Virus record (IMG/VR): IMGVR_UViG_3300044630_005137
Location: 42,227 to 106,226 of that record
Source: a virus
Strand: one strand, 5' to 3'
Length of the DNA: 64,000 bases
Below are positions 749 to 27,368 of this stretch, piece by piece. The first letter of the stretch is position 1. The number at the start of each line of letters is the position of its first letter. The notes beneath the pieces were generated by a model. The model was not told where the DNA came from. It was given only the letters and a program-made list of their open reading frames with translations, and did no database searches. Position numbers and translations under genes: made by a program.

Positions 749-749
749 A

Positions 750-1166: not shown

Positions 1167-1247
1167 TTTGTGCCTCCTTTCATATTATACCATTATCATA
1201 TACCATTTAGCAATATGATCAAAATTTAATTACAGATTAACTATTTA

Positions 1248-10143: not shown

Positions 10144-13100
10144 TTAGATTGCTCTACACGAAATTGAGGTACTTAGCCCCTCCCTATACTCTAAAGTACA
10201 TTTAGTTATTACATACTTATTGCTAGACTGAGTCATTCCTAATATCGGATAATTTATGCTAACAATATCCCCAGCAGATAAAATTGGATTTCCAAAGACT
10301 GTCATATCAACAAATCTACCTTTATTTAAAGAGTTTGATTTAATCCAATTTGCAAGCTTTTCTGCGTCCTGTTCATTTTGAATCCATGAGGAATCAAATA
10401 TTACAGACTCTTTATTTTTAGGGTCATCTGACTGATCTGTATTATAATCTATGGCGGAGGATCTACTAATACTATTTCCAAGTATATAGAAGGTTGTATA
10501 ATTACTATCGTGTAAAACAACTGAAGTAGAGGTGTTGTTTAAAACGTATGCCTCAGCTGTAAATGGCTGCAACCTTTTATCAAGTACTGTGACGTAAGGA
10601 TTATTGGGAGTTCTAACCATAATAGGCAGGGCTGGCCTGTCGTCATAAGGAACTTTTATTTTTCTTATTTCTCTTGCAGTTGTTCCAAACTCCATAAGGC
10701 CCACCTCCTGTTCAGGAGTAGTGTCCGCATCATTATAAATTATATCTCCATATAACATAGAAATTGTATCGTCAGAATAATTTCCATTGTGCCTGTATGA
10801 CTGCAAACTACTATTTTTTTTATAAAGATCTTCATTGATACTTTTCCCGTATAAGAAATCAAAGAAGGCAATTCCCTGCCCACAATGCAGCGCTAAATTT
10901 TTTGTTATACCAATTGGTGGGATATATTGATTAAAAGAATCATTTCCCTGATCAACTGCTACTATCTTAAACCCATTAATAAAAACAGTAATTGTATTTT
11001 TAACTAATTGCCCCGACGTGGTTTGCGCCTTAACAAGCACGTCTATGCTGTAAGAACTACCTGCCATTATTCCACTCAGCTTTGTTGAATCAGATTGTTG
11101 ACTATCTTTTAAAACAGTAAGTTTATTATTTTGAATCTTGACAATCATTATATCTTTTTCTAATTTTGCAAAAGCTGATGTACGAACTATTACATAATAA
11201 CCATTTTTGCCAGTTGAGTCTAGGCAAAATCCTATGCCTCCAACCTGTTCTGGGCTCATAGCCTGACTATCAAAAAACATTCTAGTACCGCAAGCCATGT
11301 ATAAAGATCCTGTATTAATTGAATTAAATGGCTTCAACACCAAGCTATACATTTTTTTATCTCTGTCTAAATTTGATACCATAAGAAAGCTTTTGGACAG
11401 TGTATCAAATTTTGAATTTGCTGGTGCAGTTATATACCCTTCACGAACTTTTAATTGTGCAACATCTGGAGTCGCTAACGTAACTGTGTACCTGTTAAAT
11501 TTATTCGCATCTGTTTCGCCTGGATTATTAATGTAAGAGGATAAACTTTTTTTGTGATTCTTTTTAGATGTTTTAAAAGCTTCCCTTGTTTTAATATTAT
11601 ACTCCCCAGTTGGATAAAAATTTTTATATCCTGGTTTTGCCAAAGCTTGATACTTCCAAAAATCTGACTGGGTTTTCATTAGAACTCTAACTGGAGGCTT
11701 GTCACGTGCTGGAGTAAAAGAGTAATCTTTTTCTGCGGGAACATATTGATACCAAAGTCCGTCGTACTCAATGATCTCGTCATTAATTAAAACGTATCCG
11801 CTAAAAGCATCAAGGACCTTGTCAATTCTTGCTGAATTTATTGTGTTTGGAGTTAGCTTAAATGTTGTACTATTGTCATTAATATCTTCATCAAGTTTTC
11901 CAGCTCCAAGAAAAGAATCTGCTGAAGTCCAAAGTGGCGAGCTAGAATTACTATTTACAGCAACAGATGCCGAAGAGTATCTAACTGTAACTTGATTTGC
12001 AGAAAATATTTCTCTAGATGATAAATCAATTATATTTGGGGCATAGTCAAGAACATTTGCAGTTTTAACTTCTTCGCTTGTAAACACCCATTTAGGAGCA
12101 ATTGTGTTGTCGTATATAACATTTCTGCTGTAAAAATTTAAAACATTATTTTCATCTACAAATGCATTCATTTGAATATCTCTGCATAGCTCTTGCAATG
12201 TTTCCCAAACCGTTTTGTCTCCGTCACACCACCAGTAAAGTAAAGATGTAATTGAATCATCATCAGCTTTTCCATCGGTCATTTTTATATTAAATTTATA
12301 TGTGGAAAAACCAATCGAGTCAAGTATTCTTTTTATTACTGAAGTTACTGGTGAATCTTGAACTAATAATTGTGGGCACATAGTATCTTGTAATATTTTT
12401 GCTGCATCAGTTGCATCAATAGATACGTCTCCAAACTCAGAAATTGTCCAGGAGTTAGCATAAAATACACCTTGTTTTATTTGTTCTAGCGATACGCCTT
12501 CTCCAAGATATACGTATGGTTCTATGATGGTGTTTTTAAATAGATAAACCTTAGTATCGTCTATAATGGGATCTTTTATGTTATATTCTAAAATTGATCT
12601 AGATGTAGGAGAATGAGGTTTAAACAAAGCTAAGCTCAAGTAGTTTGCTGTAATCACTCCAACTGGAACAATTGAATTATCATCTGCTGTTGTTTCTTTA
12701 TTAACAGAAAATGATACTATGTCTGAGTCTATTGGTTTTACCCATCTTGGACTAAATTCGATTACCCCTAATAGTTTACCCGCTTTTGAATTAACTGCAG
12801 TTAATGTTATCTTCTTTAAATATTCCGTTGTTGTATATGTAGGAGGCTTGCTTGTTGACCATCCAGTTCCATTATAATATATTATTGCTTCCCCGTTAAC
12901 AAGTGTGGTTCCAGTGACAGATATAGTTGTATTATCTGCCCTAACCCCAGTTATGGTCCATGAAGTTGGGCTGGAGTGATTAGTTTCAAACCTTGCAATA
13001 ATTTTATTTGCAGGAACTAGCTTTACTGTAGTCTTTGCTTCATCTAAAAAATATTCTAAAGAAACACTAATGTCTTCATCTTTAGGTGCCAGCCAATATT

Positions 13101-13455
13101 TATACACCATGCTTGGGCCAGGATAATATAGTCTTGGCTTGTCTCCAATAGCTACGTCTCTAGGCTTTTCATAAAAACTCTGGTCTGGTGTGTCTGTCTG
13201 CTTGCCAGTTATAGGATCTTTTGTATAAACTAAATATTTAATTCCTGGGGCTAGAGGTCTAAATGGCTTATAGATTGTATCGATTGGAAATAGTTTTTTA
13301 TATGCATCTGTATAAGTATGTTTTGCAGCTGTAGATGTTGCTTTTATATATTCAACCATAGAGTTTAAGTTATACTCCATTGTTGCACCTGCTGAAGTTT
13401 TTATAGATGACCCCTTTTTAAGCAAGTCTTTATTTGAAGCGTTTATGGATATCAT
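10144..13455 (-). CDS. Tail-tip hub (Tal/baseplate hub-like) protein
   Basis: 1103 aa, second gene after the tape measure. C-terminal GNPILSAGDIVSI motif typical of hub proteins. Confidence 0.7.
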   Translation of the reverse strand: MISINASNKDLLKKGSSIKTSAGATMEYNLNSMVEYIKATSTAAKHTYTDAYKKLFPIDTIYKPFRPLAPGIKYLVYTKDPITGKQTDTPDQSFYEKPRDVAIGDKPRLYYPGPSMVYKYWLAPKDEDISVSLEYFLDEAKTTVKLVPANKIIARFETNHSSPTSWTITGVRADNTTISVTGTTLVNGEAIIYYNGTGWSTSKPPTYTTTEYLKKITLTAVNSKAGKLLGVIEFSPRWVKPIDSDIVSFSVNKETTADDNSIVPVGVITANYLSLALFKPHSPTSRSILEYNIKDPIIDDTKVYLFKNTIIEPYVYLGEGVSLEQIKQGVFYANSWTISEFGDVSIDATDAAKILQDTMCPQLLVQDSPVTSVIKRILDSIGFSTYKFNIKMTDGKADDDSITSLLYWWCDGDKTVWETLQELCRDIQMNAFVDENNVLNFYSRNVIYDNTIAPKWVFTSEEVKTANVLDYAPNIIDLSSREIFSANQVTVRYSSASVAVNSNSSSPLWTSADSFLGAGKLDEDINDNSTTFKLTPNTINSARIDKVLDAFSGYVLINDEIIEYDGLWYQYVPAEKDYSFTPARDKPPVRVLMKTQSDFWKYQALAKPGYKNFYPTGEYNIKTREAFKTSKKNHKKSLSSYINNPGETDANKFNRYTVTLATPDVAQLKVREGYITAPANSKFDTLSKSFLMVSNLDRDKKMYSLVLKPFNSINTGSLYMACGTRMFFDSQAMSPEQVGGIGFCLDSTGKNGYYVIVRTSAFAKLEKDIMIVKIQNNKLTVLKDSQQSDSTKLSGIMAGSSYSIDVLVKAQTTSGQLVKNTITVFINGFKIVAVDQGNDSFNQYIPPIGITKNLALHCGQGIAFFDFLYGKSINEDLYKKNSSLQSYRHNGNYSDDTISMLYGDIIYNDADTTPEQEVGLMEFGTTAREIRKIKVPYDDRPALPIMVRTPNNPYVTVLDKRLQPFTAEAYVLNNTSTSVVLHDSNYTTFYILGNSISRSSAIDYNTDQSDDPKNKESVIFDSSWIQNEQDAEKLANWIKSNSLNKGRFVDMTVFGNPILSAGDIVSINYPILGMTQSSNKYVITKCTLEYREGLSTSISCRAI

Positions 13456-14057
13456 ACTTGCTCCAGGCTTATGTTAACACTCCAAAAGGGTTGTATGCCT
13501 CTTTTTATTACAGTAAAGTCGCATGAGGTAAACATCATATTGTAAGTATATTTATTTGCCAAGAGGCCAGATGATTCCTCTATCATATCTACTGGAAATA
13601 CTGTTGGGTTTAATTTAATTAAAAATGCACCTTGACCAGCTGCGCTTTCATAAAAAGTTTTTAAATCTTCTGCTCCCCATCCACCATCAACTGTTTCATT
13701 TCTAAATGACGGTATCATTGCCCAAGATATGGATAGGTTTAGTTTATCAGCAATAAAATACTTTCTTAATGTTCCATTTGACATTCTTTGGCTATTTTCA
13801 ATTCTATTTGTACTTATAGAAAGAGGATCTCTATTGTGCTCTGTAACTCTTCTAAATTTTGTTGCAGTTGTTTTATCGCTAGTTGCAAGACCGTTTTTAG
13901 CTGCTGTATGAAAATCATATATATTTCCTGGTGCTGGAATATTTACTCCCTTATAATCAAAAGTGTTGTTAGCTGTATCAATTGCAAGTGGGTCGGGTGC
14001 TTGTATATAGAGAATTGATCCCTTTGATAAATTTTGAAACAATGGGCTCTGTGTCAT
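13452..14057 (-). CDS. Distal tail (Dit-like) protein
   Basis: 201 aa directly after the tape measure. Motifs RM.NGTLRKY and W.V.I.LE.V. Confidence 0.65.
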   Translation of the reverse strand: MTQSPLFQNLSKGSILYIQAPDPLAIDTANNTFDYKGVNIPAPGNIYDFHTAAKNGLATSDKTTATKFRRVTEHNRDPLSISTNRIENSQRMSNGTLRKYFIADKLNLSISWAMIPSFRNETVDGGWGAEDLKTFYESAAGQGAFLIKLNPTVFPVDMIEESSGLLANKYTYNMMFTSCDFTVIKRGIQPFWSVNISLEQV

Positions 14058-17000
14058 TATCCATTACCTACTCTTCTATTTACTCCCGCTGCCATTTCTT
14101 TTAATCTCATTTCTTTATGTATTTGAGTTGCAACATCTTGTGCTGTTACATTAGTTCCATTTAATTCTACACTAATATTATATACTGAACCTGATACAGC
14201 CGCCGATGCATTTGGATTAAATGGGTTCATATTGGCTGGAATTACTGCTTCATTTTTATGAAGCATTGCCAGCATATTTGCAGGAACCATATTGATTCCA
14301 TTTTCAAACATTGGAACACCTAGATTTGAAAGAGAATTAACCATTCCACCATTTGCAAATTTTGGTCTAATTGAACCAAACTCAAGCAATTTTTTAAAAG
14401 TATTATTAATAGCATCCATGAATGGAAGGTTCCTGCTATGTAAATCCGTTTTCATTAATCGGGATAAATCATGTGGGTAAATTCCTTGGGGCAAAGCCGC
14501 GCCTCTAACTACAGAGTAGAATTCATCTGCAGTGTTAGCTCTTTGTGGTCCAGGTGTTCCCCTCTTGTCCCCTCTTACAGTAAATTTTTTGCCCCCAACT
14601 GCAATTCTTTGTCCTCCGCCAAGTAATTCTACTAATTCTGGGGGTAAGGTTGATGTAAATTCATCATACATTCCACCAATAGAAAGTGGTGTCGGAACTT
14701 GTTCTGGGAGTACGTCTATCTTATAAAGACCAGCATTGCTTCCACCCATCCAGTTTCCTGCTTTATCTCCTGTAAGGTTTAAATGAGCATCGCTAGCATA
14801 GTGTGCTGCCATTTTTGAAGACAAACTCCAGTATCCACCAAGCTTGCTATGTGCTTCGGTAGCTTTATACATTGCAAGGGGTTGATTTGGATCTAGTCCG
14901 TGGGCTGCGGCGTATGCTTTATTTGCAGCTTTAGAAAACTCCGTGGTGACTGTTTCTGCAGTTTCAGCTCTGCTAATTTGTCCTTTACCCATTAAGCCTA
15001 GCATTGTCATAAAATATTCTTTTGACACGTCTTTAATTGCTGGGTCTCCGTTTTTGTTTAATATTTCCCACGCTTCTCCCCAATAATAATTGTAAGCTCT
15101 AGACAAATCTGTTCCTGGCGGACTAAAAAATGTAGTTGGGGCATCAGTTAGTGCACGATCTCCAGATAAAACCATCTCTGGAATAGAAGCTCCCCTTGCT
15201 TCAGCATACTCCATTGCTTTTTTCTGTAAGTTTCTAATAATTGTTTTACTTGCTTTAGAGGATTTCATTGATGAGACAGCAGGTCCGCCAGCACCAGTTG
15301 TAGCATTTGCCAAACGTGCAGAGTTTGCTACACCAGTAGCTCCCATTCCAACTCTTGCGCCGAGACCAAATCCCATAAAATTAAATGGCAGCAATGATGC
15401 AGATAAGTTATCTCCCTCTCTGCTTTGGCCAGTAGCTTTTCTTAAAGCAGCAACTGCTCCAAGTGGGTCTGAGGCCATCCATGAAGTAAGTGGTGATCTA
15501 GAAAGAATTGCTTGAGCTTCATCTTGTGATTCAGTTAATCCAGATACATATCTTTGTAGCCAATTTTGTTTTTTAGATGTTGGCTCTCCATACTTATGCT
15601 TATGTCCTACTGGACCACCTTTGTGGAATCGCTTAGCGTTCATTTCAATAATCTTGGCTCGCATTGCGGTCTTAGATAAATCGTTAAGGATTTGGCTTGC
15701 TACCTCACTTGCAGAACCCATGCCAGCATCTACGTACTTATACTTATCGTGTCTACTATAGCCTATAGTTCCATCGCTACCTAGCCACGAGTATGCAGGA
15801 CCGTCAGAAACTTTTATTGGCTTAGTAAGTTTAGCAGCAGTCTTTGCTGCCCCTCCGTAGTTCCTAGCCATTTCGTATGCGTACTTAGCATAGGCAGTAG
15901 TACCTTTACGAGGTGCTTGTATTAGTGTATTTGTAAGAGCGTCATGAGGATGTGGATGGACATAGCCACCGTCGTGCATACCAACCGTAAATCCTCCGCC
16001 GCCGCCTAACAATCCGCCAGACCATGCAGATGCGCCAGAGCCAATTAGTGGAGGAGTATACTTGTCTATACCCATTCCTGGAGACTTGAATTTCTTTCTC
16101 TTCTTAGGCCAAGAAGGAATGCCTGGTCCGCCACCTTCGCCAAAGGCTTGAACCATTCCTCCACCTGCAAACTTTTTAGGGATATTTATCCTACTGCCTT
16201 TGTAAACTGTATTGCCTAAAAGATAATCAGGATTTAATTCAGCAAGTACTTTTGAATCAATATTAAGACTTTTTGCAATTTGTGATAAAGTTTGATCTTT
16301 TTCTACCACATGAGTTGTTCGTTGATTTACAGCTGCAGATATAGCATCTTCAATTGCTGTAAGTGGAGAAGGCATAAAGTTGGGTCTTGCATAGGCTACT
16401 AGGGCATTGTCCCCTACAGATTCTTTTGTTAAGTAATACCCACTTTGGCTAACTCTGTCTCTTATATTTCCATCAACAGTAGATATACTAAATTGTTCTA
16501 CGCCGCTATAACTCTTTTCTCTTTTAACTTCAGTTGCAATTGCGGCATGTCTTATTCTATTCGTATCAGAATCAGAACTTTGCTGAGCCCAATTTAAATA
16601 CATAATGTCGCCAGGCTTTGGAGGATTTTTTAAAATCCTAGCCCAGCCAGCTTTTGCTTTATCCTGTTTAGATTTTTCTCTTTTTGCTTGATAGGCATGA
16701 TATTTTTTATAATACTCATCCGCAGCTTTTTCATACCTTTCAATATCTTTTGGATTCCCATAGTATTTTCCAGTATCATAATTTACTCCAACGTTAAAGT
16801 CAGAAGCTCTTGGCGATTCGCCTACATCATCCGAAGCAGATCGATCATCTATTTTTGTTGGTATTGTTGTAGCAACATCTACAAGCTGACCTAATCCTGC
16901 AAAACTTTTAGCACCGTCTGCTGTATAAAAAGTATCTGGTATTTTAACGCCAGACATGTGTGCGGCCCACTGAACAAATGTTCCACACCATGCAAATGCT

Positions 17001-20000
17001 TTTGCTCCAAGGTCTTTTATGCTATTGAGCCATCTTGAATATTTTGTTATATTATTACCCTCTGCGCCATATGTTTTGCCCATTACTTCTTCTTCAGTTC
17101 CAAGTTGAGAAATTGCTGTATCTATAAATCTTTTAGCAGTACCAAGTGGTGATTTAACATCTTTTAATGTTGGATCTTTACCTATTTCTTTTAGTAATGC
17201 TTGTCCGCCAGTTGAAAATTTTTGAACTTGGCCTCCATTTGCAAACCGACCAGCATTTATATCATCCATTGCTTTTACGCCATACTTTGCAACAGAAGAT
17301 GCCTTGATCACATATTCTCCATGTGAAAGCATCGCTGGAATAGAGTCTGATGTTGCAGTTCCTGGACCTCTAACCTTACCTCCGCTAGCATATGTTGGAC
17401 TGATATCTCTTTGGTACTGAATACTTCCATCATTTAAAACTAAGAATTGTTTTTTAACTCCATTAGCTTCTTCTAAAGTAAATTGTTGTCCTGGTTTATA
17501 TCCCTTTTTTGCTGCAAAGTACTTTACTGCGCTTCTATCATTAAATAATGGTGTGTTCCAATCAATATATTTTTTACCTACCGCGTCCTTTGCGGTTCCA
17601 GCATTTATTGGATCTTTATAAGTTCCGCCACCACGAATTGCTGCAACTATTTCTTCGGTCATTTTCTTTATTGAGTACCCCTTGCCACCAGTAATCTGAT
17701 CAGCAAACTTTGTTACTGCGGCAACATCTCTATCAAATATAGAAAGTGTGTCTTTATTTACAGATACTCTTGGAACTATTCCTGCAGTGCCAGCGTCTGG
17801 CAATCCAGCAGGTTTAGATTCTACATATACTTTCTTTACAGTTCCATCTTTATTAAAATATTCAGCAAAGGCTGATCTTATGTCCTTTGCAGTTTGGCTA
17901 TTTCCAGTTCCTGCCACACCAATTTGTTTAAGCAAATTATCAAGTCTGCCCAGAAGTTGTACCTCTGAATCTCTTTTTGCTTTGCTATCTGGTAACAGAT
18001 TATTTGTTATTCTTAGTGTAGTTATCTCATCATAAGTATCTTTAAAGCCTTTAATTAGATCTGCAATTTTAGTTGCGCTTGCTGCGCCATCTTGCGCTCC
18101 CTCGAACTTTTGGGCTGCTGCATCGGCTTTTGCTTGTTTTGCATCTATTTTCTTTTGCTCAATAGCCTTTAGTCTAGCTGCTTCGTCCTCTATTGCTTTT
18201 TGAGTTAGGTCAAACTGTCTATTACTAGTAAGTTGATCTATTTCTATTCTTGCTCTAGCTGCGCCAGCCTGATCTCCACGAGATATAGCGTCTGCATATT
18301 CTATTTGAAGCTTTTGTAATTCTAACGCATAGTTTGATGCATCTTGAGTTGCTCTTAAAGACTCTAATTTTTTATTTTTTTCATCTTCAATAAGACTAAT
18401 TTTTTTAGCAATTAATTTTAATTCTTCTTGAATATTTTTCTGTGTGGCAGCAGCAGCTTTTTGTGATGCGGCGGAAGTAGCTGCAATTGATTTTTGTAGC
18501 TTATTTAATATCTTTCCAACAGATCCATATGTGCTTCCGTCCCCAGCGGCTTTAGTTAATCCATCAATTCCTTCTCCAACTGCTGCAGTAAATCCAGCTA
18601 GCTTTATAGCTAATTCGCCATCAAGGTACTTAAGGTCTAGACCGATTCCAGAAGTAGATAGTTTTATTTTTGCTAAAATTGATTTTATTGAATCAAATTT
18701 ATTTGTAATTTTTGCTAACTCTGGACTCATATCTTGTATTACTTTAAAAGTTTCTTCTCCTATTGCAGCATTAAAATTAGGAACATCTTTTTCTAGATTT
18801 GCTAAAGATATTTGATATGCCTCATACTCATCAATGACTTCACCAGTTGCATTCTTTGTTCCAATAAGTGCTTTAGTACTAGAGTCAAATGTACTTATAA
18901 CACTTTCAAGACCAGATATAACACCCTTCTTGTATGCATTAGTATCTGCAAAAGCATTGGCATATCTATCAATTAGGCCAATGAATGTTAAATCTACGCC
19001 TCTTTCAAATAAGTTATTTTCTTCCTTCCATTGCTTAGTAAACCACATTGGTTGTTTTGCAAGATTATACTCAAAAGATCCCTTTGACCAACCAGTTTTT
19101 GGTTCAGGCTTTAATGTTTCTAGTAAATTTTTAACAGCAAACTCAGCCGCTGTGGCTTTATCTGTAATTGCACCAAATCCGCTATTGGCCAACAATTCAT
19201 AAGATTTTGTGGCTTTCTCGCTATTAGCAATTGCTCCGTAAATCATTCTATTTGCTTGCTCTACACTCAAGCCTCCTGCAATAAATTGTGCTTTTTGGTT
19301 GTTTATTAAAGTTTGAAGCTCTCCAGTGCTTGAAGTTCTATTAATTGATTCAATTAAATCTTTAAGAGCCGCGCCTTCTTCTTTTGCTTTCTTCATGTCT
19401 TCTACTGATTGTGGTATACCAGGCATTCCTATGGAGCTGCTTCTTCCTCCTTGTGCCGCAGCATTTGCCAATTTTTGTTTTTCAATATACTCTGTAAGGT
19501 AGTTATTAAGATTAAAGTATGATATTCCAGCTTGTTCAGCACCGTCTTTAGTAATGCCCAAAGACATTGCGGCATCCTGTTGAGCATTATTATATTTCTT
19601 CCAAACATCAAAGCCAATTAAAAGAACTGATATGACTACACCAACACCTTTAAGAATTTTAATATATTTACCTAATTGTGCTCCTAACTTAGATATTGCA
19701 TCTTTAAAGCCTTTAGCAGCTTTAATTGCAGCCATAGTTGCACTAGTGGTTGTTTTTATTTTGTTTCCAACTGTTAACCATGGGACCATAGGGATTATAG
19801 TTGATGCGGCCATAATACCTAATCCAGCATTCATTCCAGACATTTCCATGCCAAGCATATTAACTTTTTCCTGCTGCATCATGTACATTCCGCCCATGTT
19901 GCCAGCCATACCGATACCCATCTGGGCACCCATTCCCATTCCGCCTCTTATTTTGGTATCAAGCCCTGCTGCTTGTGCAGACTTTTTATCATGGATATAT

Positions 20001-23000
20001 CCGTCGGCGTCCATGTACTCACGTTTTCTGTAGCCCAAGGTTCCAACTTTACGGCTCTTTGTTCCATCTTGCCCAGTCTCTTTCCAATCGCCAACCATTC
20101 CAGGACCAGACATAGATATTGGCATAATTTGGCCAGGTCCCATTAGATAGTTTGCACCTGGATATGCAGCCGAATAGCTTCTAGCTTGATGTCTTAATAT
20201 ACCGTCCTTAATATCTCTTGTATTTGTTTTTACCCAATTAGAAAGGAATGAAGCATTTAGTCTTGCAGATGCTACTTGGGATTTTGCAAAATCTCTATAT
20301 GCGCTATTAATGTGAGTTGCTGATGTTGCAATTCCATATCTTAAACCTACTGTGCCGACCTTAATTGATTTAGTTAAAGAATCAAACGCTCTAGTTACTC
20401 CTGCTGGTAGCTGACCTATTTGAGAAAGCTTTAAGGTATCTATAATCTGTTGAGATTGACCAGTTGCTACTGAACCAAAAGCGTTACCAGCAACTCCAGA
20501 TCCTCCAACATAAGGAACTCGGATGACCTGCATTTGAGGGTTTCCTGAAGATGTGTATCCAGATCCAGATGGAGGATTATAAGATGCAGTTCTTGCTGCT
20601 CTTAATCTATCATCTTCAGCTCTTTTTGCTGGGTTTCCTGATCTCTGTGACCCTTTTTTATTCTTAGCGCCATATGCATATCTTCCTGATCTAACTGGGC
20701 CTCCGCCGATTGGGCCACCACTATTTCTTTTAGCTGCAACATGAACTGCATGCAGCGGACCAAAATCAGTTGCATCATCCATTCCATTTTCAAATCTTTG
20801 TAGCAATTTGATATATGGGGCTCTGTCTTCTCTCGGCAACGTTGCAACAAACTTAATAAGTTTTGGATGCATCTTTTTCATTGCGGCTTTTATTTTTCTG
20901 TTATACTGCTTAGATGTCATTCCTGCAGCAATTGGTGCTGTGTTTACTGCAAAGTCTTTCCTGGCTCCGCCTTTAACTCCAAGCAGATTTATCATAGCTT
21001 GATCTATCATAGAAGGAAGAGACTCTGCGTGTGCGGTATTGCGTGAAGCTTTAGGGAATACTCCTGCTGCTCCGACATCTGCCAAAACATTTCCATAAAC
21101 ATTGCTTGGAGATAAATCCTTATTATTCATAACTAAAGATGCAATTGTTTGTCTAATCATTTCATCTTCGGTAAAGACTGTTCCTCCAGTAGTAAACCTT
21201 TTATCAAACGGTGACTCAACACCGAGCAACTTTGATTTGCCACTTGGGTCTAATGGATTTGATATTGTTTTAATTGTTTGCTCAGGAGCATCAAGCCCAA
21301 ACACTTCTCTAGCCATTCTAGTTCCGTATACCTCAGCTTTAGCAGATATTTCATTTGGAACACCCTTAAAGAACTTAAGTCTACCTTCGGAGTCTCTGTA
21401 TAATCCAGAAACACCAGGTATTGGATAACTCATTCCAGAGCTTGGTGAAACCATGTGTCCATATTTAACGGGAGGCAAATCTTTAAACGATCCAGTTGCT
21501 GTAGCCCTTGACATTTCACGAGATTGCTCTAAAATATCAAGTTGCTTACCTGGCGGTAATAATTTTAACAATGGGGATATGCTAGTCCCTCTATCTCTGC
21601 CCGCTACTGCTTCTTTAATCCACGGGTACTTAATCATATCGGCTTCACGCTTTTTAGCATATTGAGCTTGCTGAGCCAATCTAATAGACTCTAGTCTTGC
21701 AGAGAGTGGAGGAACCACTCCGTATGAAAATCTACCTGGAGATACAGATCCACCTGGAATCATACCTCCCATGTTAAGTTTAGCAAGTACTGGTGTCATT
21801 ATAGGAGGTCTTCCTCTAGGGATTAACATCCATCTCTTTCTTTCCATAACGGCTTCAAGGAACATCTGAAGATCGTTTCTTTGCTTTGGTGTTGCTCTTA
21901 CAACTGAACCAGATGCAATTTGTTCTTTAGTTTTAAACAAATTATTTTCTTCAAGCGCTGTAGCAATATCATCTACTGTTGTCATCTTGTGCATTCCAAC
22001 AGATTTAAGTGCTATCTGAAAATTCTTTCTAGCATCTTCTCCGCTCAAGTGAAGTATGTCTGGAGATATTCCTATATCTTGAAGTCTAGCCATTATGCTG
22101 TTAATACCGTTTGGAATTACTGCGGCAACTCCCATGTGACCGCTAGTGGCATACCCAACATTTCCATGACGTGTAATATGGCCTCTAGCATGCAAGCCTT
22201 CTATATAAGGCATGCCCTTTGAATTCTTAAGATCAGTAGGAGTAACCCCTTCAATCAAATCAAATACATCTTTAAACTTTCGATTCTTAAGCATAGCGGA
22301 TCTTACATTATTTAGTTCATAGTTTAGGGCTGTGCTTCCGCCAGTGCTTCTAGTATTTGTAGGATCATTTAGCTTTAATCCAGGGAATTTAAGATTACCA
22401 TTAGCATCTTTAGCTCCTTCTAAACCTTGAACCTGTTTAATTCTTATGTCTATAAACTTCTCAATAGATCCGCCTGATTTTCCTATAGCTTTATCAAAGT
22501 TACTAGTTGCAATATTAATAGCTTTATCAATAGGCATTTTAGCTTTGCCTGCTAATTCAGCAGCATCTAACATGATCATTCTTACTCTAATGTCGTCTGC
22601 GTATCTTGGGTTATTAATAAATCTTAGATATTCTCTTAGCCTTCTCTTATAATAGGCTTTATTTTCTACTTGTGGAGTTTTGCCTGTCTTCTTTCCATAT
22701 CCAGTAACTCCATTCATTATCTGCCCGCCGAAATTGTAACCGCTATTTGCGGCATCTACAGCTGCATACAGTTCAGGCATTCTTTGAATCTTAGGACCAA
22801 ACACTACTTCCCGTGGTGTGAGTGCTGCTGTTATCTCTCCACCATTTTCATATGTAGCAGAAGCCATTGCAACAAGCGGTGCATTTGCTGGGTCCATAGA
22901 TGCTGATTGGTTTAATACGTATCCACCAACTGGAACACTTCCAAGTCTATCGTCATAGTTAATAGAAGATGGACCAGAAACCATAGTCTTGCCTGGGCCA

Positions 23001-25729
23001 AATGATTCAATGTCTCCACCAGTATTAAACTTAGGCATTCTTGTTGTCTGCATGCTATACGGAGCACCAAACGTTCTGATTCCACGCAGTCTACCAAACT
23101 CGGTCATTACAGCTGCGTTATTTTTTTTCTTATAAAGATCTCTTAATGTAAATTGACCATTTGCATCAACAACTGGTTGATCCATCATTGGGGCTCTTGT
23201 TAAATCAAGGCTTCTTCCACGTCCTGCAGCGTACATACTTACAGCAGCGCCCATGTCTGCTTCTATCTGTGCATTTAAAGCAATAATTCTTGCCTTTGCT
23301 TGATCAACTGTTATTTCTGCACTTCTCATTTGCTGAACTATTAATCCAGACTGTGTAGCTGCACTATCTGCAAATCTTTGAGTTATAGGAAGAATGTCAT
23401 CAAATGTGTCAAGGAGTTCTCTACTGACTGTTCCGCCCATCATAATTGTTTTCTTTAATGCTGCAATTTCTTGCTCTGTTTGCATTCCAAGTGTTGCCAT
23501 TAATGCATGGAACTTGGCTGCTTCTCCTGGAACAATTCCTGTAGATATTCCCTTTACGCTTGTTAGACCTTCAATGTTAGGTAGTCTATCATGCATATAC
23601 ATTTGAGGAGTTCTTGATATTCCTCTATTTACTGGTATTGCTCCTGGTACCCCGCCAAATATTGTTGCTGGCTTATTTGGGTCTCTAGGATTAATATGAG
23701 ACATTGCTCTTGTGTTAGGATCTCCTACATAAGGATCGTTAGGGTCAACAACTCTTCTTCCATGAGCAGGAGCAACAATTGTATTTCCAGCAACAGTAGA
23801 GACTCCTGCGTTTACTGGAACTGCACCCTTCATTGATGCTGCTTGAAGATTTTGATAATCTAAAACAAGTTTTTGAAGTGCATTGTGAAGAACTTGAGCC
23901 GCAGCTGCATCAGAATAAAATGCATTCTCGACTAGCTCTGCTGCTTTTTGTGCGGCAATAATTTCTGGAGTAAGCATCTTCCAGCCATTTGCTTTCATAA
24001 AGAATGCTCTTAGCTGGACAACACCCTTAGTTATATATCCAAAGAAGTTTGCGAGTAAACCAGTTAACATAATAAGTGGTCCAACTAATGCTGTAAATCC
24101 AGCAAGGAAGGTCAATCCTTTTTTAATTGGGTCTGGCAATTTAGTAAAGAAATCTAAGATTTTTGTTGCTGCGCTTATAAGCTTAGTTGCAACTCCAAGA
24201 AATTCCTGTCCTACATCTGCAAGCTCTGCTTTTAGTCCTTCTATGGCTCTCTTGTATTTACCAGATGCAGACTCTGTAACCATTTTTAATTCTCGGCTTG
24301 CTATATCTGCTAAATCTCCAGTACTTGCTTTCATCAATTCTAAAACTTGAAGCGTCTGGCTACCCTGTTTACCTAGATTATTAAGCAATGCGCTCATTCT
24401 TGCAAACTGGAACTTTCCAAACATTTGCTCCATTGCTCTTGCTTTACTTAGTGGGTCAAGGGAGTCTAAAGCTTTTTGCAGATCCATCAATAAACCAGTA
24501 GTGTCTCCAGTATTTTTTGCAACCATGCCCATAACATCTATGCCAAAATCTGACATCATCCCTACGGTTTGTTTTGTTGGGTTAATAAGAGATGCTAAAC
24601 CAGACTTCAAAGCGTTGGCACCTTCTGAAGCGCTAACACCACCTTCACGCATTGCAGTTAGATATAGGGCTAAGTCTTTAACATCTCCACCTAGCTGCTG
24701 AATCACTGGACCAGCTTTTGGAATTGCTTCTACTAGGTCATTAAGAGTTGTTGATGTCTGGTTTTCAACTGCGTTTAGAAAGTTAATAGATTCTGTTAGC
24801 TCTTGAGTATTTTGCTTAAAAGCTGTTTGAATTGATAATGTTGCTTTCATTGCATCTTGTCTATCAACTTCACCCAGAATAGCAAGTCTTGTTGTTTCTG
24901 CAATTGATCCTAGAAGTTCGTTTCCAGTTTGTCCTGTTGCTGCAATATCAGCACCTAATGCAATAGTATCCTTAAATGATGCACCCATTGTTTTAGATAA
25001 TGTTTTTGCAGTCTCAACAACTTCTTCTCTAATTGCTTTTAAATCTGAAGCAGATGTAGCTGCAAGACCACCGTAAACTTTTGTTAATCTTACAAGCTCT
25101 TGGTCTGCTTCTTTAAATGCTTTACCAGCTGCTGCTCCAAACATTGTGATTGGCACAGTAAGTCCTACAGTAAGCTGTCTACCAGCCCACTGAGTATTCT
25201 TACCCCAGTTAATTAAAGATCCTGCTCCCTCAGACAATGCACGATTCATAATCTGCATTTCCATTCGAGCTAGTTTTCCACTATTTGCTACAGCATCTAA
25301 TCCTCTAGGAATCATTACGTTATACTGCATTAACCCCTGAGCATTTCTACCTAGTGGTTGCAGTACTGAATTTTGAAGCATTACCTGTTCTTTGGCAAGC
25401 TCCCTGATCATACCCTTTTGAGTAGTAGTATGCTCTCTAAATGTAGAAAAATAATTTTTAAGCTTTAATCTACCAGCATCTAAGTTCTTACCGAACTTGT
25501 CTACATCAGAATTAAGGTTTACAAAGTGACTGGAGAACTGTCCGCTTCCAGTTAATGTATCTCTAAATAAATTGTTTGCTAATTTTGTTGAAGAAGAAAT
25601 TGCTTTGTTTGATGCAAGAAGCTCTCTTTGTAATTGTTGGAGACTAGAACTAGCCCTGTGTACTTCAGACACAAGGCTAGACAAGTCGGCTTTGGCGACT
25701 ATACTGGTTACAATTTGTTCGTCAGCCAC
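14057..25729 (-). CDS. Tape measure protein, 3890 aa, with embedded CHAP-like peptidase, LysM and further putative enzymatic modules
   Basis: Follows the tail chaperone. N-terminal TP901-type TMP core, hydrophobic segments, GPGTATSDSIPAMLSHGEYV motif, AWCGTFV...H...GN (CHAP) and HVVEKDQTLSQIA...LNP (LysM). Confidence 0.92.
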   Translation of the reverse strand: MADEQIVTSIVAKADLSSLVSEVHRASSSLQQLQRELLASNKAISSSTKLANNLFRDTLTGSGQFSSHFVNLNSDVDKFGKNLDAGRLKLKNYFSTFREHTTTQKGMIRELAKEQVMLQNSVLQPLGRNAQGLMQYNVMIPRGLDAVANSGKLARMEMQIMNRALSEGAGSLINWGKNTQWAGRQLTVGLTVPITMFGAAAGKAFKEADQELVRLTKVYGGLAATSASDLKAIREEVVETAKTLSKTMGASFKDTIALGADIAATGQTGNELLGSIAETTRLAILGEVDRQDAMKATLSIQTAFKQNTQELTESINFLNAVENQTSTTLNDLVEAIPKAGPVIQQLGGDVKDLALYLTAMREGGVSASEGANALKSGLASLINPTKQTVGMMSDFGIDVMGMVAKNTGDTTGLLMDLQKALDSLDPLSKARAMEQMFGKFQFARMSALLNNLGKQGSQTLQVLELMKASTGDLADIASRELKMVTESASGKYKRAIEGLKAELADVGQEFLGVATKLISAATKILDFFTKLPDPIKKGLTFLAGFTALVGPLIMLTGLLANFFGYITKGVVQLRAFFMKANGWKMLTPEIIAAQKAAELVENAFYSDAAAAQVLHNALQKLVLDYQNLQAASMKGAVPVNAGVSTVAGNTIVAPAHGRRVVDPNDPYVGDPNTRAMSHINPRDPNKPATIFGGVPGAIPVNRGISRTPQMYMHDRLPNIEGLTSVKGISTGIVPGEAAKFHALMATLGMQTEQEIAALKKTIMMGGTVSRELLDTFDDILPITQRFADSAATQSGLIVQQMRSAEITVDQAKARIIALNAQIEADMGAAVSMYAAGRGRSLDLTRAPMMDQPVVDANGQFTLRDLYKKKNNAAVMTEFGRLRGIRTFGAPYSMQTTRMPKFNTGGDIESFGPGKTMVSGPSSINYDDRLGSVPVGGYVLNQSASMDPANAPLVAMASATYENGGEITAALTPREVVFGPKIQRMPELYAAVDAANSGYNFGGQIMNGVTGYGKKTGKTPQVENKAYYKRRLREYLRFINNPRYADDIRVRMIMLDAAELAGKAKMPIDKAINIATSNFDKAIGKSGGSIEKFIDIRIKQVQGLEGAKDANGNLKFPGLKLNDPTNTRSTGGSTALNYELNNVRSAMLKNRKFKDVFDLIEGVTPTDLKNSKGMPYIEGLHARGHITRHGNVGYATSGHMGVAAVIPNGINSIMARLQDIGISPDILHLSGEDARKNFQIALKSVGMHKMTTVDDIATALEENNLFKTKEQIASGSVVRATPKQRNDLQMFLEAVMERKRWMLIPRGRPPIMTPVLAKLNMGGMIPGGSVSPGRFSYGVVPPLSARLESIRLAQQAQYAKKREADMIKYPWIKEAVAGRDRGTSISPLLKLLPPGKQLDILEQSREMSRATATGSFKDLPPVKYGHMVSPSSGMSYPIPGVSGLYRDSEGRLKFFKGVPNEISAKAEVYGTRMAREVFGLDAPEQTIKTISNPLDPSGKSKLLGVESPFDKRFTTGGTVFTEDEMIRQTIASLVMNNKDLSPSNVYGNVLADVGAAGVFPKASRNTAHAESLPSMIDQAMINLLGVKGGARKDFAVNTAPIAAGMTSKQYNRKIKAAMKKMHPKLIKFVATLPREDRAPYIKLLQRFENGMDDATDFGPLHAVHVAAKRNSGGPIGGGPVRSGRYAYGAKNKKGSQRSGNPAKRAEDDRLRAARTASYNPPSGSGYTSSGNPQMQVIRVPYVGGSGVAGNAFGSVATGQSQQIIDTLKLSQIGQLPAGVTRAFDSLTKSIKVGTVGLRYGIATSATHINSAYRDFAKSQVASARLNASFLSNWVKTNTRDIKDGILRHQARSYSAAYPGANYLMGPGQIMPISMSGPGMVGDWKETGQDGTKSRKVGTLGYRKREYMDADGYIHDKKSAQAAGLDTKIRGGMGMGAQMGIGMAGNMGGMYMMQQEKVNMLGMEMSGMNAGLGIMAASTIIPMVPWLTVGNKIKTTTSATMAAIKAAKGFKDAISKLGAQLGKYIKILKGVGVVISVLLIGFDVWKKYNNAQQDAAMSLGITKDGAEQAGISYFNLNNYLTEYIEKQKLANAAAQGGRSSSIGMPGIPQSVEDMKKAKEEGAALKDLIESINRTSSTGELQTLINNQKAQFIAGGLSVEQANRMIYGAIANSEKATKSYELLANSGFGAITDKATAAEFAVKNLLETLKPEPKTGWSKGSFEYNLAKQPMWFTKQWKEENNLFERGVDLTFIGLIDRYANAFADTNAYKKGVISGLESVISTFDSSTKALIGTKNATGEVIDEYEAYQISLANLEKDVPNFNAAIGEETFKVIQDMSPELAKITNKFDSIKSILAKIKLSTSGIGLDLKYLDGELAIKLAGFTAAVGEGIDGLTKAAGDGSTYGSVGKILNKLQKSIAATSAASQKAAAATQKNIQEELKLIAKKISLIEDEKNKKLESLRATQDASNYALELQKLQIEYADAISRGDQAGAARARIEIDQLTSNRQFDLTQKAIEDEAARLKAIEQKKIDAKQAKADAAAQKFEGAQDGAASATKIADLIKGFKDTYDEITTLRITNNLLPDSKAKRDSEVQLLGRLDNLLKQIGVAGTGNSQTAKDIRSAFAEYFNKDGTVKKVYVESKPAGLPDAGTAGIVPRVSVNKDTLSIFDRDVAAVTKFADQITGGKGYSIKKMTEEIVAAIRGGGTYKDPINAGTAKDAVGKKYIDWNTPLFNDRSAVKYFAAKKGYKPGQQFTLEEANGVKKQFLVLNDGSIQYQRDISPTYASGGKVRGPGTATSDSIPAMLSHGEYVIKASSVAKYGVKAMDDINAGRFANGGQVQKFSTGGQALLKEIGKDPTLKDVKSPLGTAKRFIDTAISQLGTEEEVMGKTYGAEGNNITKYSRWLNSIKDLGAKAFAWCGTFVQWAAHMSGVKIPDTFYTADGAKSFAGLGQLVDVATTIPTKIDDRSASDDVGESPRASDFNVGVNYDTGKYYGNPKDIERYEKAADEYYKKYHAYQAKREKSKQDKAKAGWARILKNPPKPGDIMYLNWAQQSSDSDTNRIRHAAIATEVKREKSYSGVEQFSISTVDGNIRDRVSQSGYYLTKESVGDNALVAYARPNFMPSPLTAIEDAISAAVNQRTTHVVEKDQTLSQIAKSLNIDSKVLAELNPDYLLGNTVYKGSRINIPKKFAGGGMVQAFGEGGGPGIPSWPKKRKKFKSPGMGIDKYTPPLIGSGASAWSGGLLGGGGGFTVGMHDGGYVHPHPHDALTNTLIQAPRKGTTAYAKYAYEMARNYGGAAKTAAKLTKPIKVSDGPAYSWLGSDGTIGYSRHDKYKYVDAGMGSASEVASQILNDLSKTAMRAKIIEMNAKRFHKGGPVGHKHKYGEPTSKKQNWLQRYVSGLTESQDEAQAILSRSPLTSWMASDPLGAVAALRKATGQSREGDNLSASLLPFNFMGFGLGARVGMGATGVANSARLANATTGAGGPAVSSMKSSKASKTIIRNLQKKAMEYAEARGASIPEMVLSGDRALTDAPTTFFSPPGTDLSRAYNYYWGEAWEILNKNGDPAIKDVSKEYFMTMLGLMGKGQISRAETAETVTTEFSKAANKAYAAAHGLDPNQPLAMYKATEAHSKLGGYWSLSSKMAAHYASDAHLNLTGDKAGNWMGGSNAGLYKIDVLPEQVPTPLSIGGMYDEFTSTLPPELVELLGGGQRIAVGGKKFTVRGDKRGTPGPQRANTADEFYSVVRGAALPQGIYPHDLSRLMKTDLHSRNLPFMDAINNTFKKLLEFGSIRPKFANGGMVNSLSNLGVPMFENGINMVPANMLAMLHKNEAVIPANMNPFNPNASAAVSGSVYNISVELNGTNVTAQDVATQIHKEMRLKEMAAGVNRRVGNG

Positions 25730-26106
25730 TAATTACTCCTAGAATATCCTAACCCTGCTCCAATTCCAAATCCAGCTTGCGCCGCTAAGGGCCCTTGTAA
25801 ACCAACAACATCATCTGGTGATGCATTTATTCCAAGTGCTCTTCTTTGGATATCTTCAAAGGTAGAACCTTTTTTTTCTTCTTCTACATCATCATCTAAT
25901 TGTATCCCTTTTAGTGATGCTGCAAACTTTCTTTGGTTGTGCTCTCTTTCATTTATCGCTGTAATTGTTTGAATCAATTCTGGCAGTGATAAAGTTTCTT
26001 CTAGTTCTTCGTAATTCTTCCAGTGACCCAGAAGAAAAACTTGACCCTCTAAAGCGGCTAAATCTAGTTCTGGCCAGCCAGTACCGCTGCCGCTATCAGG
26101 TTTGGG
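25729..26106 (-). CDS. Tail assembly chaperone C-terminal extension (gpGT-like), reached by -1 frameshift
   Basis: The -1 frame is open from the slippery site: PDSGSGTGWPELDLAALEGQVFLLGHWKNYEELEETLSLPELIQT... Confidence 0.8.
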   Translation of the reverse strand, partial: PKPDSGSGTGWPELDLAALEGQVFLLGHWKNYEELEETLSLPELIQTITAINEREHNQRKFAASLKGIQLDDDVEEEKKGSTFEDIQRRALGINASPDDVVGLQGPLAAQAGFGIGAGLGYSRSN

Positions 26107-26396: not shown

Positions 26397-26456
26397 TTTA
26401 TCCTCCTTAAGGATTGTCTAAATTATTATAGCATAACCATTATACGGATACAACAG

Positions 26457-26484
26457 CAAAGCCCCCAATTTCTTGGGGGCTTTG
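26457..26484 (-). terminator. Hairpin after the major tail gene
   Basis: CAAAGCCCCCAA-tttc-TTGGGGGCTTTG, with only a weak U tract. Confidence 0.7.
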
Positions 26485-26503
26485 ATATTAATTATTAATA
26501 TAA

Positions 26504-27265: not shown

Positions 27266-27368
27266 AATTGTATTTCCTCCTGATTTCATATGAAATTGAT
27301 ATATCTATTTGGCTGGCTAGGCCCTTTCCTCTGTTCTAATTTTACTCTACTACATTATAAAAGGCAAA

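Follow-up and report, generated by a model that had tools for sequence, protein, structure and literature searches.

The tape measure gene and its surroundings

In the window, that is, the whole stretch of 64,000 nucleotides that was analysed, positions 14057..25729 of the minus strand are taken up by a single open reading frame of 3,890 amino acids with a GTG start. It encodes the tape measure protein (TMP) of a siphophage, because it matches the Pfam family PhageMin_Tail (PF10145) with 90.3 bits against a cut-off of 33.2, as well as at least eleven TMP PHROGs, among them phrog_10030 with E = 1.4e-120, and because its gene context agrees with this identity. The genes upstream are read as tube and chaperone, the TMP is located between these and the distal tail genes (Table 1), and no sheath gene was seen. 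From its position and size, the 201-aa ORF downstream is read as Dit-like.

Table 1. Features of the tape measure gene and its neighbours (window positions; for each joint motif, the position of its first codon)
Feature	Residues (aa)	Position	Strand	Remark
Minor tail protein		10144-13455		1,103 aa
Downstream ORF		13452-14057		201 aa; sole match phrog_1194, a PHROG without assigned function
Whole TMP ORF	1-3890	14057..25729	-	3,890 aa; Pfam, PHROGs, gene position
Canonical N-terminal TMP part	1-900	23030..25729	-	PhageMin_Tail aa 239-438; hydrophobic segment aa 537-567; helix-prone
First joint cluster (KFNTGG, YENGG, YNFGG)	901-1002	22724..23029	-	Weak GG/PAML module copy
KFNTGG		23029	-	
YENGG		22852	-	
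YNFGG		22738	-	
Helical segment	1003-1317	21779..22723	-	Two unrelated allelic types among relatives
LNMGG		21778	-	
Kinase-like module	1318-1687	20669..21778	-	Between LNMGG and RNSGG joints; predicted fold aa ~1433-1660
RNSGG		20728	-	
Basic, Gly/Ser-rich segment	1688-1925	19955..20668	-	pLDDT mostly below 50
Gly/Met-rich segment	1926-2060	19550..19954	-	Two hydrophobic membrane-type segments, aa 1969-1988 and 2019-2044
Second helix-prone, ruler-like stretch	2061-2779	17393..19549	-	Low Gly+Pro aa 2080-2600, then short variable segment
GG/PAML module (YASGG..SDSIPAMLSHGEYVIKA..RFANGG..KFSTGG)	2780-2842	17204..17392	-	5' boundary of the variable cassette
YASGG		17392	-	
FANGG, 5' copy	2829	17245	-	
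FSTGG		17218	-	
Putative cell-wall hydrolase	2843-3186	16172..17203	-	Split CHAP, then LysM; PHROG and Pfam
FAGGG		16171	-	
Connector (FAGGG..SPGMGIDK..GSGAS..GGLLGGGGG)	3187-3250	15980..16171	-	Recurs between cargo modules of relatives
MHDGG		15979	-	
M5, small alpha/beta domain	3251-3367	15629..15979	-	Bounded by MHDGG and FHKGG; pLDDT about 90
FHKGG		15628	-	
M16	3368-3790	14360..15628	-	No Pfam, no structural match
FANGG	3791	14359	-	
Second GG/PAML-like module (KFANGG..FENGINMVPANMLAMLHKNEAVIPA) and conserved terminal ~45 aa	3791-3890	14060..14359	-	Homology resumes here
FENG		about 14308	-	Inside second PAML-like module; not a full motif
Two small upstream ORFs		26064-26396 and 25729-25977		Upstream side of TMP
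Tube-like gene		26504-27289		Upstream side of TMP

The protein consists of an ultra-conserved N-terminal part (aa 1-1000), a chain of segments and a conserved C-terminal piece that presumably binds the tail tip. The same open frame with the same motif positions is found in 21 independent complete metagenomic contigs. Across all 21 relatives, aa 1-900 are 85-97% identical, and together with the upstream tube and chaperone genes this part forms one contiguous block with 82-91% nucleotide identity, while the total length of the TMP in relatives ranges from 2,794 to 4,710 aa. Megablast of the TMP gene against 50,697 phage records gave no match, and tblastn of aa 850-2000 against cultured phages gave none either. 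Distant relatives were located in MAGs labelled Bacteroidia and Aquiluna, which is inconclusive for the host.

The joint motif and the GG/PAML module

An earlier note on this DNA had claimed that about a dozen related motifs punctuate the protein, and this is borne out: all of them are present, each within 10 nt of the position given there, and the TMP carries 13 copies of a short conserved joint. The joint consensus is [KR]-[FYW]-[NAH]-x-G-G-x-[VI], and it is part of a generic C-terminal TMP module of the lambda gpH type, GG..PAxLxxGE.V..GG. In the TMP, [FY]..GG occurs 12 times (2.37 in shuffled sequences), [FY]..GG.[VI] 9 times (0.25) and [KR][FY]..GG 7 times (0.27), and none of these counts was reached in any of 2,000 shuffles; GG dipeptides as such are only mildly enriched, with 49 against 38 in shuffles.

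Moreover, the GG of the copies at aa 901, 960, 998, 1318, 1668, 2780 and 2829 is 100% conserved in the 21 relatives, while identity in the flanks of these seven core copies falls as low as 0.33-0.42. Where the query has the L of LNMGG and the R of RNSGG, relatives mostly have F, Y or W. FTTGG at aa 1512 (within the kinase fold) and FIAGG at aa 2149 resemble the motif and were not listed in the earlier note; both are poorly conserved and are probably chance matches. The copies differ from each other at synonymous codons, and therefore the constraint acts on the protein; since they share at most about 11 nucleotides, an origin of the motifs as DNA repeats is also rejected. A literature search for the motif strings returned only noise.

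The GG/PAML module at aa 2780-2842 is similar to over 20 TMP PHROGs in their C-terminal parts (lowest E 2e-17). Among these, phrog_2335 is common to the query module (E = 1.3e-6, profile positions 1406-1449) and to the C-terminus of gpH (E = 1.9e-7, positions 1318-1452), and the pairwise comparison of the query module with lambda gpH gives E = 0.014. The first joint cluster can be aligned with aa 2786-2835 over 50 aa without gaps (E = 0.029). The terminal ~45 aa of the copy at aa 3791-3890 are presumed to be the hub-binding end, by analogy with gpH residues 818-849 (PMC12617516) and with the last 35 residues of T5 pb2 (PMC10038345).

In the AlphaFold2 models, pLDDT is below 50 at aa 1318, 1668-1700, 3251 and 3371-3387, and the joints thus fall in linkers of low confidence between the kinase-like and M5 domains, whose folds are predicted with confidence. 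Strings rich in HxH, such as GGYVHPHPH and GGPVGHKHK, come after the cassette joints.

Segments between the joints and their predicted functions

According to the earlier note, the motifs flank globular-looking segments. This is borne out in part: AlphaFold2 gives confident folds for aa ~1440-1670, aa 3270-3370 and parts of aa 3490-3650, and other stretches are of low confidence.

The kinase-like module has a pLDDT of 66-92 over aa 1440-1670. All 50 rows of its VIA search are kinase folds, including CotH (Z 9.8, rmsd 4.6, 210 residues aligned), MavQ (Z 9.7), CtkA (9.3), PI4KIIa (9.3) and HipA (8.6), and Foldseek places PI4KIIa and CtkA on top with E = 2-3e-3. In 18 sequences, G1439, G1442, K1455, E1466, N1536-K-D-L-S1540, N1543 and D1551-V1552 are invariant and G1553 is nearly so; the catalytic set is thus present as a Gly loop, Lys, Glu, a D-x4-N loop (D1538, N1543) and a D-x-G metal site. 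No HipA or PI3/PI4-kinase Pfam profile matches, and a search of the whole protein at E<=0.1 gave only PhageMin_Tail and LysM. From the model, aa ~1433-1660 are predicted to take up a kinase fold of the HipA/CtkA/PI4K-like kind, in which the catalytic residues are intact, without family assignment. Stand-alone relatives of the module are limited to 7 matches, at least 4 of which are on contigs shorter than 3 kb.

On the N-terminal side of this module lies the helical segment aa 1003-1317, whose identity to the query in relatives is either 53-74% or 21-23%. Helices are predicted at aa 1030-1110 and 1140-1160 with pLDDT of 60-80, and for aa 1001-1320 the only Pfam result at E<=10 is an insignificant match to SpoVIF (E = 0.12). 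For aa 644-1000 and aa 1671-1930, no Pfam family was obtained at E<=10.

In the putative cell-wall hydrolase, a charged insertion of ~70 aa divides the candidate CHAP domain into two halves. Its Cys half (aa 2865-2949) is matched by the endolysin family phrog_9589 with E = 9e-10; the His half reaches 17.5 bits in Pfam, below the cut-off of 26, and the candidate LysM domain (PF01476) reaches 20.8 bits against a cut-off of 20.9. In the corresponding cassettes of relatives, CHAP scores 46-50 bits in L007, L021 and L022 and 28.6 bits in L013, and LysM scores 48.4 bits in L013. In addition, the query CHAP segment has a paralogue with 46% identity in the same genome, which is a stand-alone gene of 211 aa.

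M5 and its counterpart in L007 are 93% identical in nucleotides as far as the FHxGG joint, where the similarity stops; homologues of M5 also exist as free-standing proteins of 130-145 aa, Lys-rich and without joints. A search of 1.84 billion proteins turned up no more than 38 relatives of M16, and many of these are giant proteins of more than 2,000 aa. Neither M5 (aa 3251-3367) nor M16 (aa 3368-3790) matches a Pfam family at E<=10, and the structure searches with both gave no credible fold (best Z 5.9, for M5; best Foldseek E 0.9). Phmmer against the PDB returned nothing significant for the kinase, the CHAP/LysM and the M5 and M16 segments. The earlier proposal that several effectors are carried as cargo is supported in part, by the kinase-like fold and the putative CHAP and LysM domains, and M5 and M16 are without recognisable function; the Foldseek comparison of segments between motifs, which the note had recommended, yielded a match for the kinase-like module and no credible one for M5 and M16. 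Weak ART-like pointers were seen for M16 (XopAI with Foldseek E = 1.8; Atlas ART-PolyVal 0.83 and TNT 0.79). The ART-PolyVal HMM (PF18760) had no match in the whole virus record at E<=10, and an ART reading of M16 is not supported.

Exchange of segments among relatives

The alignment of relatives shows where the TMP is variable. Homology with at least 9 relatives stops at aa 2835, inside FANGG 2829-2835, and homology with all relatives restarts at aa 3786-3805, at the FANGG of aa 3791. In place of the cassette that the query has between these two FANGG copies (aa 2836-3790), relatives carry 0 to ~1,840 aa. Further homology breaks were found at aa 1013, 1318, 1687 and 3372, and in 7 of 17 relatives a conserved DNA block ends at aa 1012-1014. 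Blocks of high-identity DNA have 14 distinct breakpoints, nine of which are no more than 20 aa away from a motif, where chance would place 13% (P<1e-4), and the ends of protein HSPs lie within 10 aa of a motif in 30% of cases against 4.6%.

Two examples come from L007, which shares exactly aa 1318-1687 with 92.3% nucleotide identity between unrelated flanks, and whose connector and M5 show 90% DNA identity up to FHxGG and are unrelated beyond it. The motif-bounded segments assort independently among relatives. It is thus strongly supported that the joints are the sites at which related phages exchange, gain and lose segments, and with it the earlier suggestion of recombination or module boundaries. 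The position of breakpoints at joints could also reflect selection, that is, only recombinants joined through linkers survive.

Comparison with processed and unprocessed tape measure proteins

It has been reported that lambda gpH is cut in its glycine-rich C-terminal region into gpH* and gpHC, with release of ~14 kDa, and that gpH attaches to the hub protein through its last ~35 residues (PMC12617516). Residues 733-785 of gpH are collinear with aa 2780-2835 of the query in the order [FY]AxGG, ~10 aa, PAxxxxGE[FY]V, ~20 aa and [FY]AxGGxV, and if gpH were cut directly in front of ATGG (aa 737), a fragment of 117 aa would result. However, gpH has one module and no cargo, whereas the query family combines three copies of the module with about ten short joints, with enzymatic segments and with a cassette that varies from 0 to 1,840 aa.

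In T5 pb2, cleavage after R1127 yields pb2* and the muralytic pb2C (PMC10038345). This cut falls in ..FVPR/AEGGMMYPGVSYQMGEHGTEVV.. (the stroke marking the cut), two residues before GG, which is followed by ..GEHGTEVV.., and the short layout is the same as in the query joints. On the other hand, pb2 has a single site with R at -3, where the query family has F or Y, and its enzyme is a metallopeptidase instead of a CHAP domain. The C-terminus of pb2 matched only its own PHROG, so the resemblance to the query module is at the level of the motif, without profile-level homology.

A third case is gp96 of Thermus phage P23-45, a TMP of 5,002 aa fused to the virion RNA polymerase, which is full-length in virions and is thus a published example of uncut TMP cargo (PMC10770324). 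On this evidence, cleavage is not a necessary step in the release of TMP cargo. Like the query, gp96 is a giant TMP with an enzyme, in this case one that acts in the host cytoplasm, and as the single published example of this kind it establishes that such cargo can be delivered by TMPs; unlike the query chain, its cargo is N-terminal and single, and the part of the paper drawn on here does not mention joint motifs or cassette exchange (PMC10770324).

Proposed mechanism and alternative readings

Taken as a whole, the protein can be read as a modular, cargo-carrying TMP in which the joints delimit the swapped segments and at least some of them are cut in tail maturation; the chances for and against this reading appear evenly balanced. 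The C-terminal ~45-100 aa would dock in the tail tip, and the segment chain would be enclosed by the tail tube. During tail maturation, at least some joints would be cut just before x-x-G-G, as in T5 pb2 (R1127/AEGG). At infection, the pieces would exit tip-first: the wall hydrolase would be followed by the hydrophobic/helical channel part and this by the kinase-like domain, while the N-terminal TMP would come out at the end, before the DNA. This order would match the layers of the cell envelope.

Cleavage at the joints is plausible by analogy, because the T5 pb2 cut sits in a similar motif and the cut in lambda gpH falls in the region of its glycine-rich motif. More tentatively, and with somewhat less than an even chance, the [FYW]-x-x-G-G-x-[VI] joint may be the recognition element of a TMP maturation cleavage common to lambda, T5 and the giant TMPs, the last being polyproteins that release ordered effectors (wall hydrolase, membrane channel, HipA-like kinase) and whose cargo is reshuffled at the joints. 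The TMP might catalyse this reaction itself, or a factor from the host or the tail might do so. A difficulty is that folded domains of 25-45 kDa would need unfolded or extended storage in the lumen of the tube.

A JAB/MPN protease of the lambda gpK type was considered as the cutter and rejected, since PF14464 is absent from the genome; the surroundings of the tail genes yielded no candidate either, and apart from the head maturation protease none was seen.

It is also possible, although with a probability short of even, that the architecture is the same and the joints are never cut, serving as hinges or anchors for threading and packing domains, so that the cargo stays tethered during and after ejection; uncut joints might, for example, touch the lumen of the tube or hold the trimer or hexamer of the TMP together. 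Binding of metal ions by HxH motifs is known from the trimeric fibres and spikes of phages, and the HxH-rich strings after the cassette joints would fit such a role, as would the location of the joints in low-confidence Gly-rich linkers and the negative protease searches (JAB in the genome, candidates near the tail genes). The full-length gp96 with an active RNA polymerase in P23-45 virions points in the same direction (PMC10770324). Against uncut joints, the mapped T5 cut sits in a similar motif (PMC10038345) and the corresponding region of lambda gpH is cut (PMC12617516); moreover, a plain hinge needs no invariant aromatic-N/A/H-x-GG-x-V/I signature that is kept from actinophages to lambda.

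That the motifs are historical scars is improbable. In this case, cassette insertion by recombination between terminal copies of the GG module would have duplicated the module, and what is left would be merely tolerated linkers. It agrees with this that long TMP forms have two GG/PAML modules flanking the cassette and minimal forms have one, and that FANGG at aa 2829 and FANGG at aa 3791 have 11 nucleotides in common. However, scars should decay, whereas the seven fully conserved GG pairs within flanks of 33-42% identity already indicate purifying selection on joint residues, the synonymous codons differ between copies, and very distant TMPs keep the same signature. Finally, the mild overall enrichment of GG (49 vs 38) would agree with the reading of motif recurrence as composition or chance in a Gly-rich giant protein, or of the ORF as an assembly artefact, a reading of negligible probability which is refuted by the shuffles, by the 21 contigs with the same frame and motif positions and by the conservation of GG.

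Significance and related arrangements elsewhere

TMPs are usually treated as rulers, sometimes with a wall hydrolase. The family described here suggests a rule by which one joint, common to the gpH module and like the T5 pb2 cut site, delimits exchangeable segments of a virion protein whose entry into the cell would precede that of the DNA. The kinase-like domain and several domains without assigned function would act before any phage gene is expressed, and such pre-made effectors could matter for host takeover or counter-defence. With regard to gpH, whose cut site and catalyst have been unresolved for about 50 years (PMC12617516), the joint offers a candidate site just before x-x-G-G. In addition, joints with known tolerance are a natural scaffold for loading proteins into phage tails.

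In polymorphic toxins, a short conserved peptide (VENN in CdiA, PxxxxDPxGL in Rhs) marks the recombination point of variable cassettes, and in Rhs the boundary peptide is also a cleavage site. The likeness to the query is one of mechanism, with no sequence relationship; the query cassettes are internal and those of polymorphic toxins terminal, and the query carrier is a virion protein. Sle1 is a TMP-related, reconfigurable effector of actinobacterial contractile injection systems (PMC13277306). Like the query, Sle1 and the phage polyvalent proteins (Iyer et al. 2017) have a TMP-derived or virion-packaged scaffold with interchangeable functional domains; unlike the query, Sle1 belongs to a non-phage nanomachine, and the tested signature of polyvalent proteins, ART-PolyVal, is absent from the query virus record. 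In the TMP gp43 of Rhodococcus phage GuyFagieri, a GG/PAML module (YATGGYVQGPGTATSDSIPAYLSNGEFV..RFATGGIV) lies before an embedded, enzyme-like domain of the HxxxD..HxH type and a YDTGG joint comes after this domain, that is, one embedded domain in comparison with the chain of domains in the query. GuyFagieri gp43 is also an example of the peptidoglycan hydrolases embedded in TMPs, as in those of mycobacteriophages and other actinophages.

A Segmented Tape Measure Protein with a Conserved Joint Peptide

The 3,890-aa ORF, in a window taken from an IMG/VR virus record of 106 kb, encodes a tape measure protein (TMP), with aa 239–438 matching Pfam PhageMin_Tail at 90.3 bits (cut-off 33.2) and the first ~850 aa matched by eleven TMP PHROGs, and it is a chain of segments linked by a conserved peptide, the joint. 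All of the motifs listed in the earlier note are present, each within 10 nt of the position assigned to it. [FY]xxGG occurs 12 times (shuffle mean 2.37), [FY]xxGGx[VI] 9 times (0.25) and [KR][FY]xxGG 7 times (0.27); for each of the three patterns, the observed count was reached by 0 of 2,000 shuffles. A scan of viral contigs gave 51 loci, from which 21 non-redundant complete TMPs of 2,794 to 4,710 aa were analysed. In their alignment, GG is invariant at the copies at aa 901, 960, 998, 1318, 1668, 2780 and 2829, and persists where identity over the 60 flanking residues is as low as 33–42%; the atypical L and R of LNMGG and RNSGG in the query are mostly F, Y or W among the relatives. Since the codons vary between copies, it is the protein that is constrained, not a DNA repeat. 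The copies are summarised by the working consensus [KR]-[FYW]-[NAH]-x-G-G-x-[VI], and the joints at aa 1318, 1668, 3251 and 3368 are located in low-confidence linkers at domain ends. FTTGG 1512 and FIAGG 2149, two look-alikes absent from the earlier list, show poor conservation and probably match by chance.

Exchange of Segments at the Joints

Relatives exchange TMP segments at these joints. The tube and chaperone genes together with TMP aa 1–1013 form one block of 82–91% nucleotide identity in all 17 relatives compared, ending at aa 1012–1014, directly after YNFGG, in seven of them; the remaining TMP and the downstream tail genes are about 65–78% identical or unalignable. One relative (L007) shares with the query exactly aa 1318–1687, from LNMGG to just beyond RNSGG, at 92.3% nucleotide identity between unrelated flanks. 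Segment 1003–1317 occurs in two types, 53–74% or 21–23% identical to the query, and either type pairs with kinase-like segments of 80–94% or 52–60% identity in any combination, that is, motif-bounded segments assort independently. High-identity DNA blocks end within 20 aa of a motif at 9 of 14 distinct ends against 13% expected (0 of 10,000 simulations), and protein HSPs do so within 10 aa at 30% of ends against 4.6%, with the caveat that these sequences share ancestry and that HSP ends are drawn to conserved islands. The suggestion that the motifs are recombination boundaries is thus strongly supported.

The same holds for the gain and loss of modules at the motifs. The relatives are homologous to the query over aa 1–2835, where similarity ends inside RFANGGQV, and again from PKFANGG (aa 3791) onwards. 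Five minimal forms lack the cassette between these FANGG copies, and its greatest length is about 1,840 aa, in L007. A single GG/PAML module (GG..PAxLxxGE.V..GG type) precedes the terminal ~45 aa of minimal forms, and long forms have a second, diverged copy (..NMVPANMLAMLHKNEAVIPA..), so that the cassette is bracketed by module copies. Its modules are mosaic, and the connector ..SPGMG[IL]DK..GSGAS..[FY][HA]xGGxVGHxH recurs between them; for the connector and module M5, query and L007 are 90% identical in nucleotides as far as FHxGG and unrelated beyond. More distant TMP relatives of 1,689–2,613 aa (L054, L055, from a MAG labelled Bacteroidia, and L056, from one labelled Aquiluna) retain the terminal ..YNINxxLNGT..DDV.. 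end and have three or no [FY]xxGG copies; multiplication of the joint is therefore specific to the closer family.

After the cassette joints come strings rich in His-x-His (GGYVHPHPHD, GGPVGHKHK, GGAVGHKH, GGLAHPHPH), which the core joints lack; in a trimeric arrangement of the chains, these strings might build a metal site.

Contents of the Segments

At least two TMP segments are enzyme-like (features are listed in the table).

Features of the TMP, its surroundings and compared loci
Feature	Position	Remarks
TMP ORF	window 14057-25729, minus strand	3,890 aa, GTG start
1,489-aa ORF	window 1248-5717, minus strand	fibronectin type III domains
Conserved tube/chaperone/TMP-start block	window 22690-28729	includes first ~1,013 TMP codons
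HxH-rich strings after cassette joints	window 15940-15979 and 15590-15628	also in L007, L019 and L022 cassettes
Helix-prone, ruler-like stretches	aa 1-650 and 2080-2600	
Hydrophobic segments	aa 537-567, 1969-1988, 2019-2044	
Kinase-like fold	aa ~1440-1670	pLDDT 66-92
Putative CHAP split by insertion, then putative LysM	aa 2843-3186	
M5	aa 3251-3367	confident small domain, pLDDT ~90
M16	aa 3368-3790	
Stand-alone CHAP-type gene	G000:C1:17320-17562 (L060), outside window	211 aa, presumed endolysin
Free-standing M5 homologues	P0011, P0014, P0020, P0021, P0028, P0035	
GuyFagieri gp43	L061:2713-7929	TMP of cultured Rhodococcus phage

With VIA, 50 of 50 matches of the kinase-like segment were kinase folds (CotH Z 9.8, MavQ 9.7, CtkA 9.3, PI4KIIa 9.3, HipA 8.6); Foldseek agreement is weak. 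Across 18 sequences, its Gly loop, Lys, Glu, D-x4-N and D-x-G residues show no or almost no variation. It matches no Pfam kinase family, so it is named a kinase-like fold without family assignment. The CHAP domain has a paralogue in the same genome, a stand-alone gene with 46% identity to the N-terminal half of the TMP CHAP module; in the TMP copy, an insertion of about 70 aa separates the Cys and His halves. The idea of several effector segments is partly supported, by the kinase-like fold and CHAP/LysM; M5 and M16 gave neither a recognisable function nor a fold match. Free-standing homologues of M5 are 130–145 aa long, up to 180 aa among those in the table; they are Lys-rich at both ends and are not flanked by joints. 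The structure search returned no structural match for M5. M16 has no Pfam match, and a search of 1.84 billion proteins gave only 38 relatives of it; hints of an ART-like reading were unsupported.

The C-Terminal Module in Other Phages

The joint peptide is part of a generic TMP C-terminal module. The query sequence at aa 2780–2835, YASGG..SDSIPAMLSHGEYVIKA..RFANGG, matches C-terminal parts of more than 20 TMP PHROG families (E down to 2e-17) and, in tblastn, TMPs of Gordonia, Burkholderia, Vibrio, Mycobacterium and Rhodococcus phages. Lambda gpH aa 733–785, KFHFATGG..PAGIVHRGEFVFTKEA..RGYATGGYV, is collinear with it in layout (pairwise E-value 0.014), and both match phrog_2335 at overlapping profile positions. 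The TMP GuyFagieri gp43 has the same local grammar, namely a GG/PAML module, RFATGG, an HxxxD..HxH enzyme-like domain and YDTGG..NEYILTP. Flanking of embedded domains by the joint may be a general feature of TMPs.

Cut or Uncut Joints

It has been reported that lambda gpH is cleaved within its glycine-rich C-terminal region by an unknown catalyst at an unknown site, and that only residues 818–849 are visible bound to the hub (PMC12617516). T5 pb2 is cleaved after R1127 (PMC10038345), within ..FVPR|AEGGMMYPGVSYQMGEHGTEVV.., two residues ahead of GG, with a downstream GE.V element as in the query; this likeness is at motif level only, and the sole PHROG match of the pb2 C-terminus is its own PHROG. 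By analogy, a modular segment-chain TMP that is also cut at some joints, the other boundary role proposed in the earlier note, has about an even chance of being correct. Cutting would take place while the tail matures, as it does in T5, and the pieces would be ejected tip-first; the segment order suits the envelope, with the wall hydrolase closest to the tip, followed by the hydrophobic and helical part and finally by the kinase-like domain. A somewhat less likely alternative keeps the same architecture with joints that are never cut. Against cleavage, no protease candidate was found near the tail genes, and JAB domains are absent from the genome; moreover, P23-45 gp96, a published TMP carrying a cytoplasmic enzyme (an RNA polymerase fusion), is full-length in virions (PMC10770324).

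TMP-embedded wall hydrolases, cleavage of the lambda and T5 TMPs and one TMP-fused RNA polymerase were already known, and contractile injection systems have TMP-related reconfigurable effectors (PMC13277306). A limited literature search found no paper on the joint motif as an exchangeable-cassette boundary or on a kinase-like TMP segment.

Surroundings of the TMP Gene

The TMP gene is flanked by a tube-like gene and two small ORFs upstream, and by a 201-aa ORF downstream, which is followed by a 1,103-aa minor tail protein. The sole PHROG match of the 201-aa ORF is a function-unknown family, and it is read as Dit-like because of its position and size. Farther upstream come the portal, head protease and major head genes; a sheath gene was not seen. 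The 1,489-aa ORF probably encodes a fibre protein or a central tip protein. Its C-terminal end weakly matches the second Ig-like domain of the tip attachment protein J. The G+C content at window 44001-50000 is 0.41–0.45, above a background of about 0.35, and GC skew, negative in the background, jumps to +0.28 at 44–46 kb.
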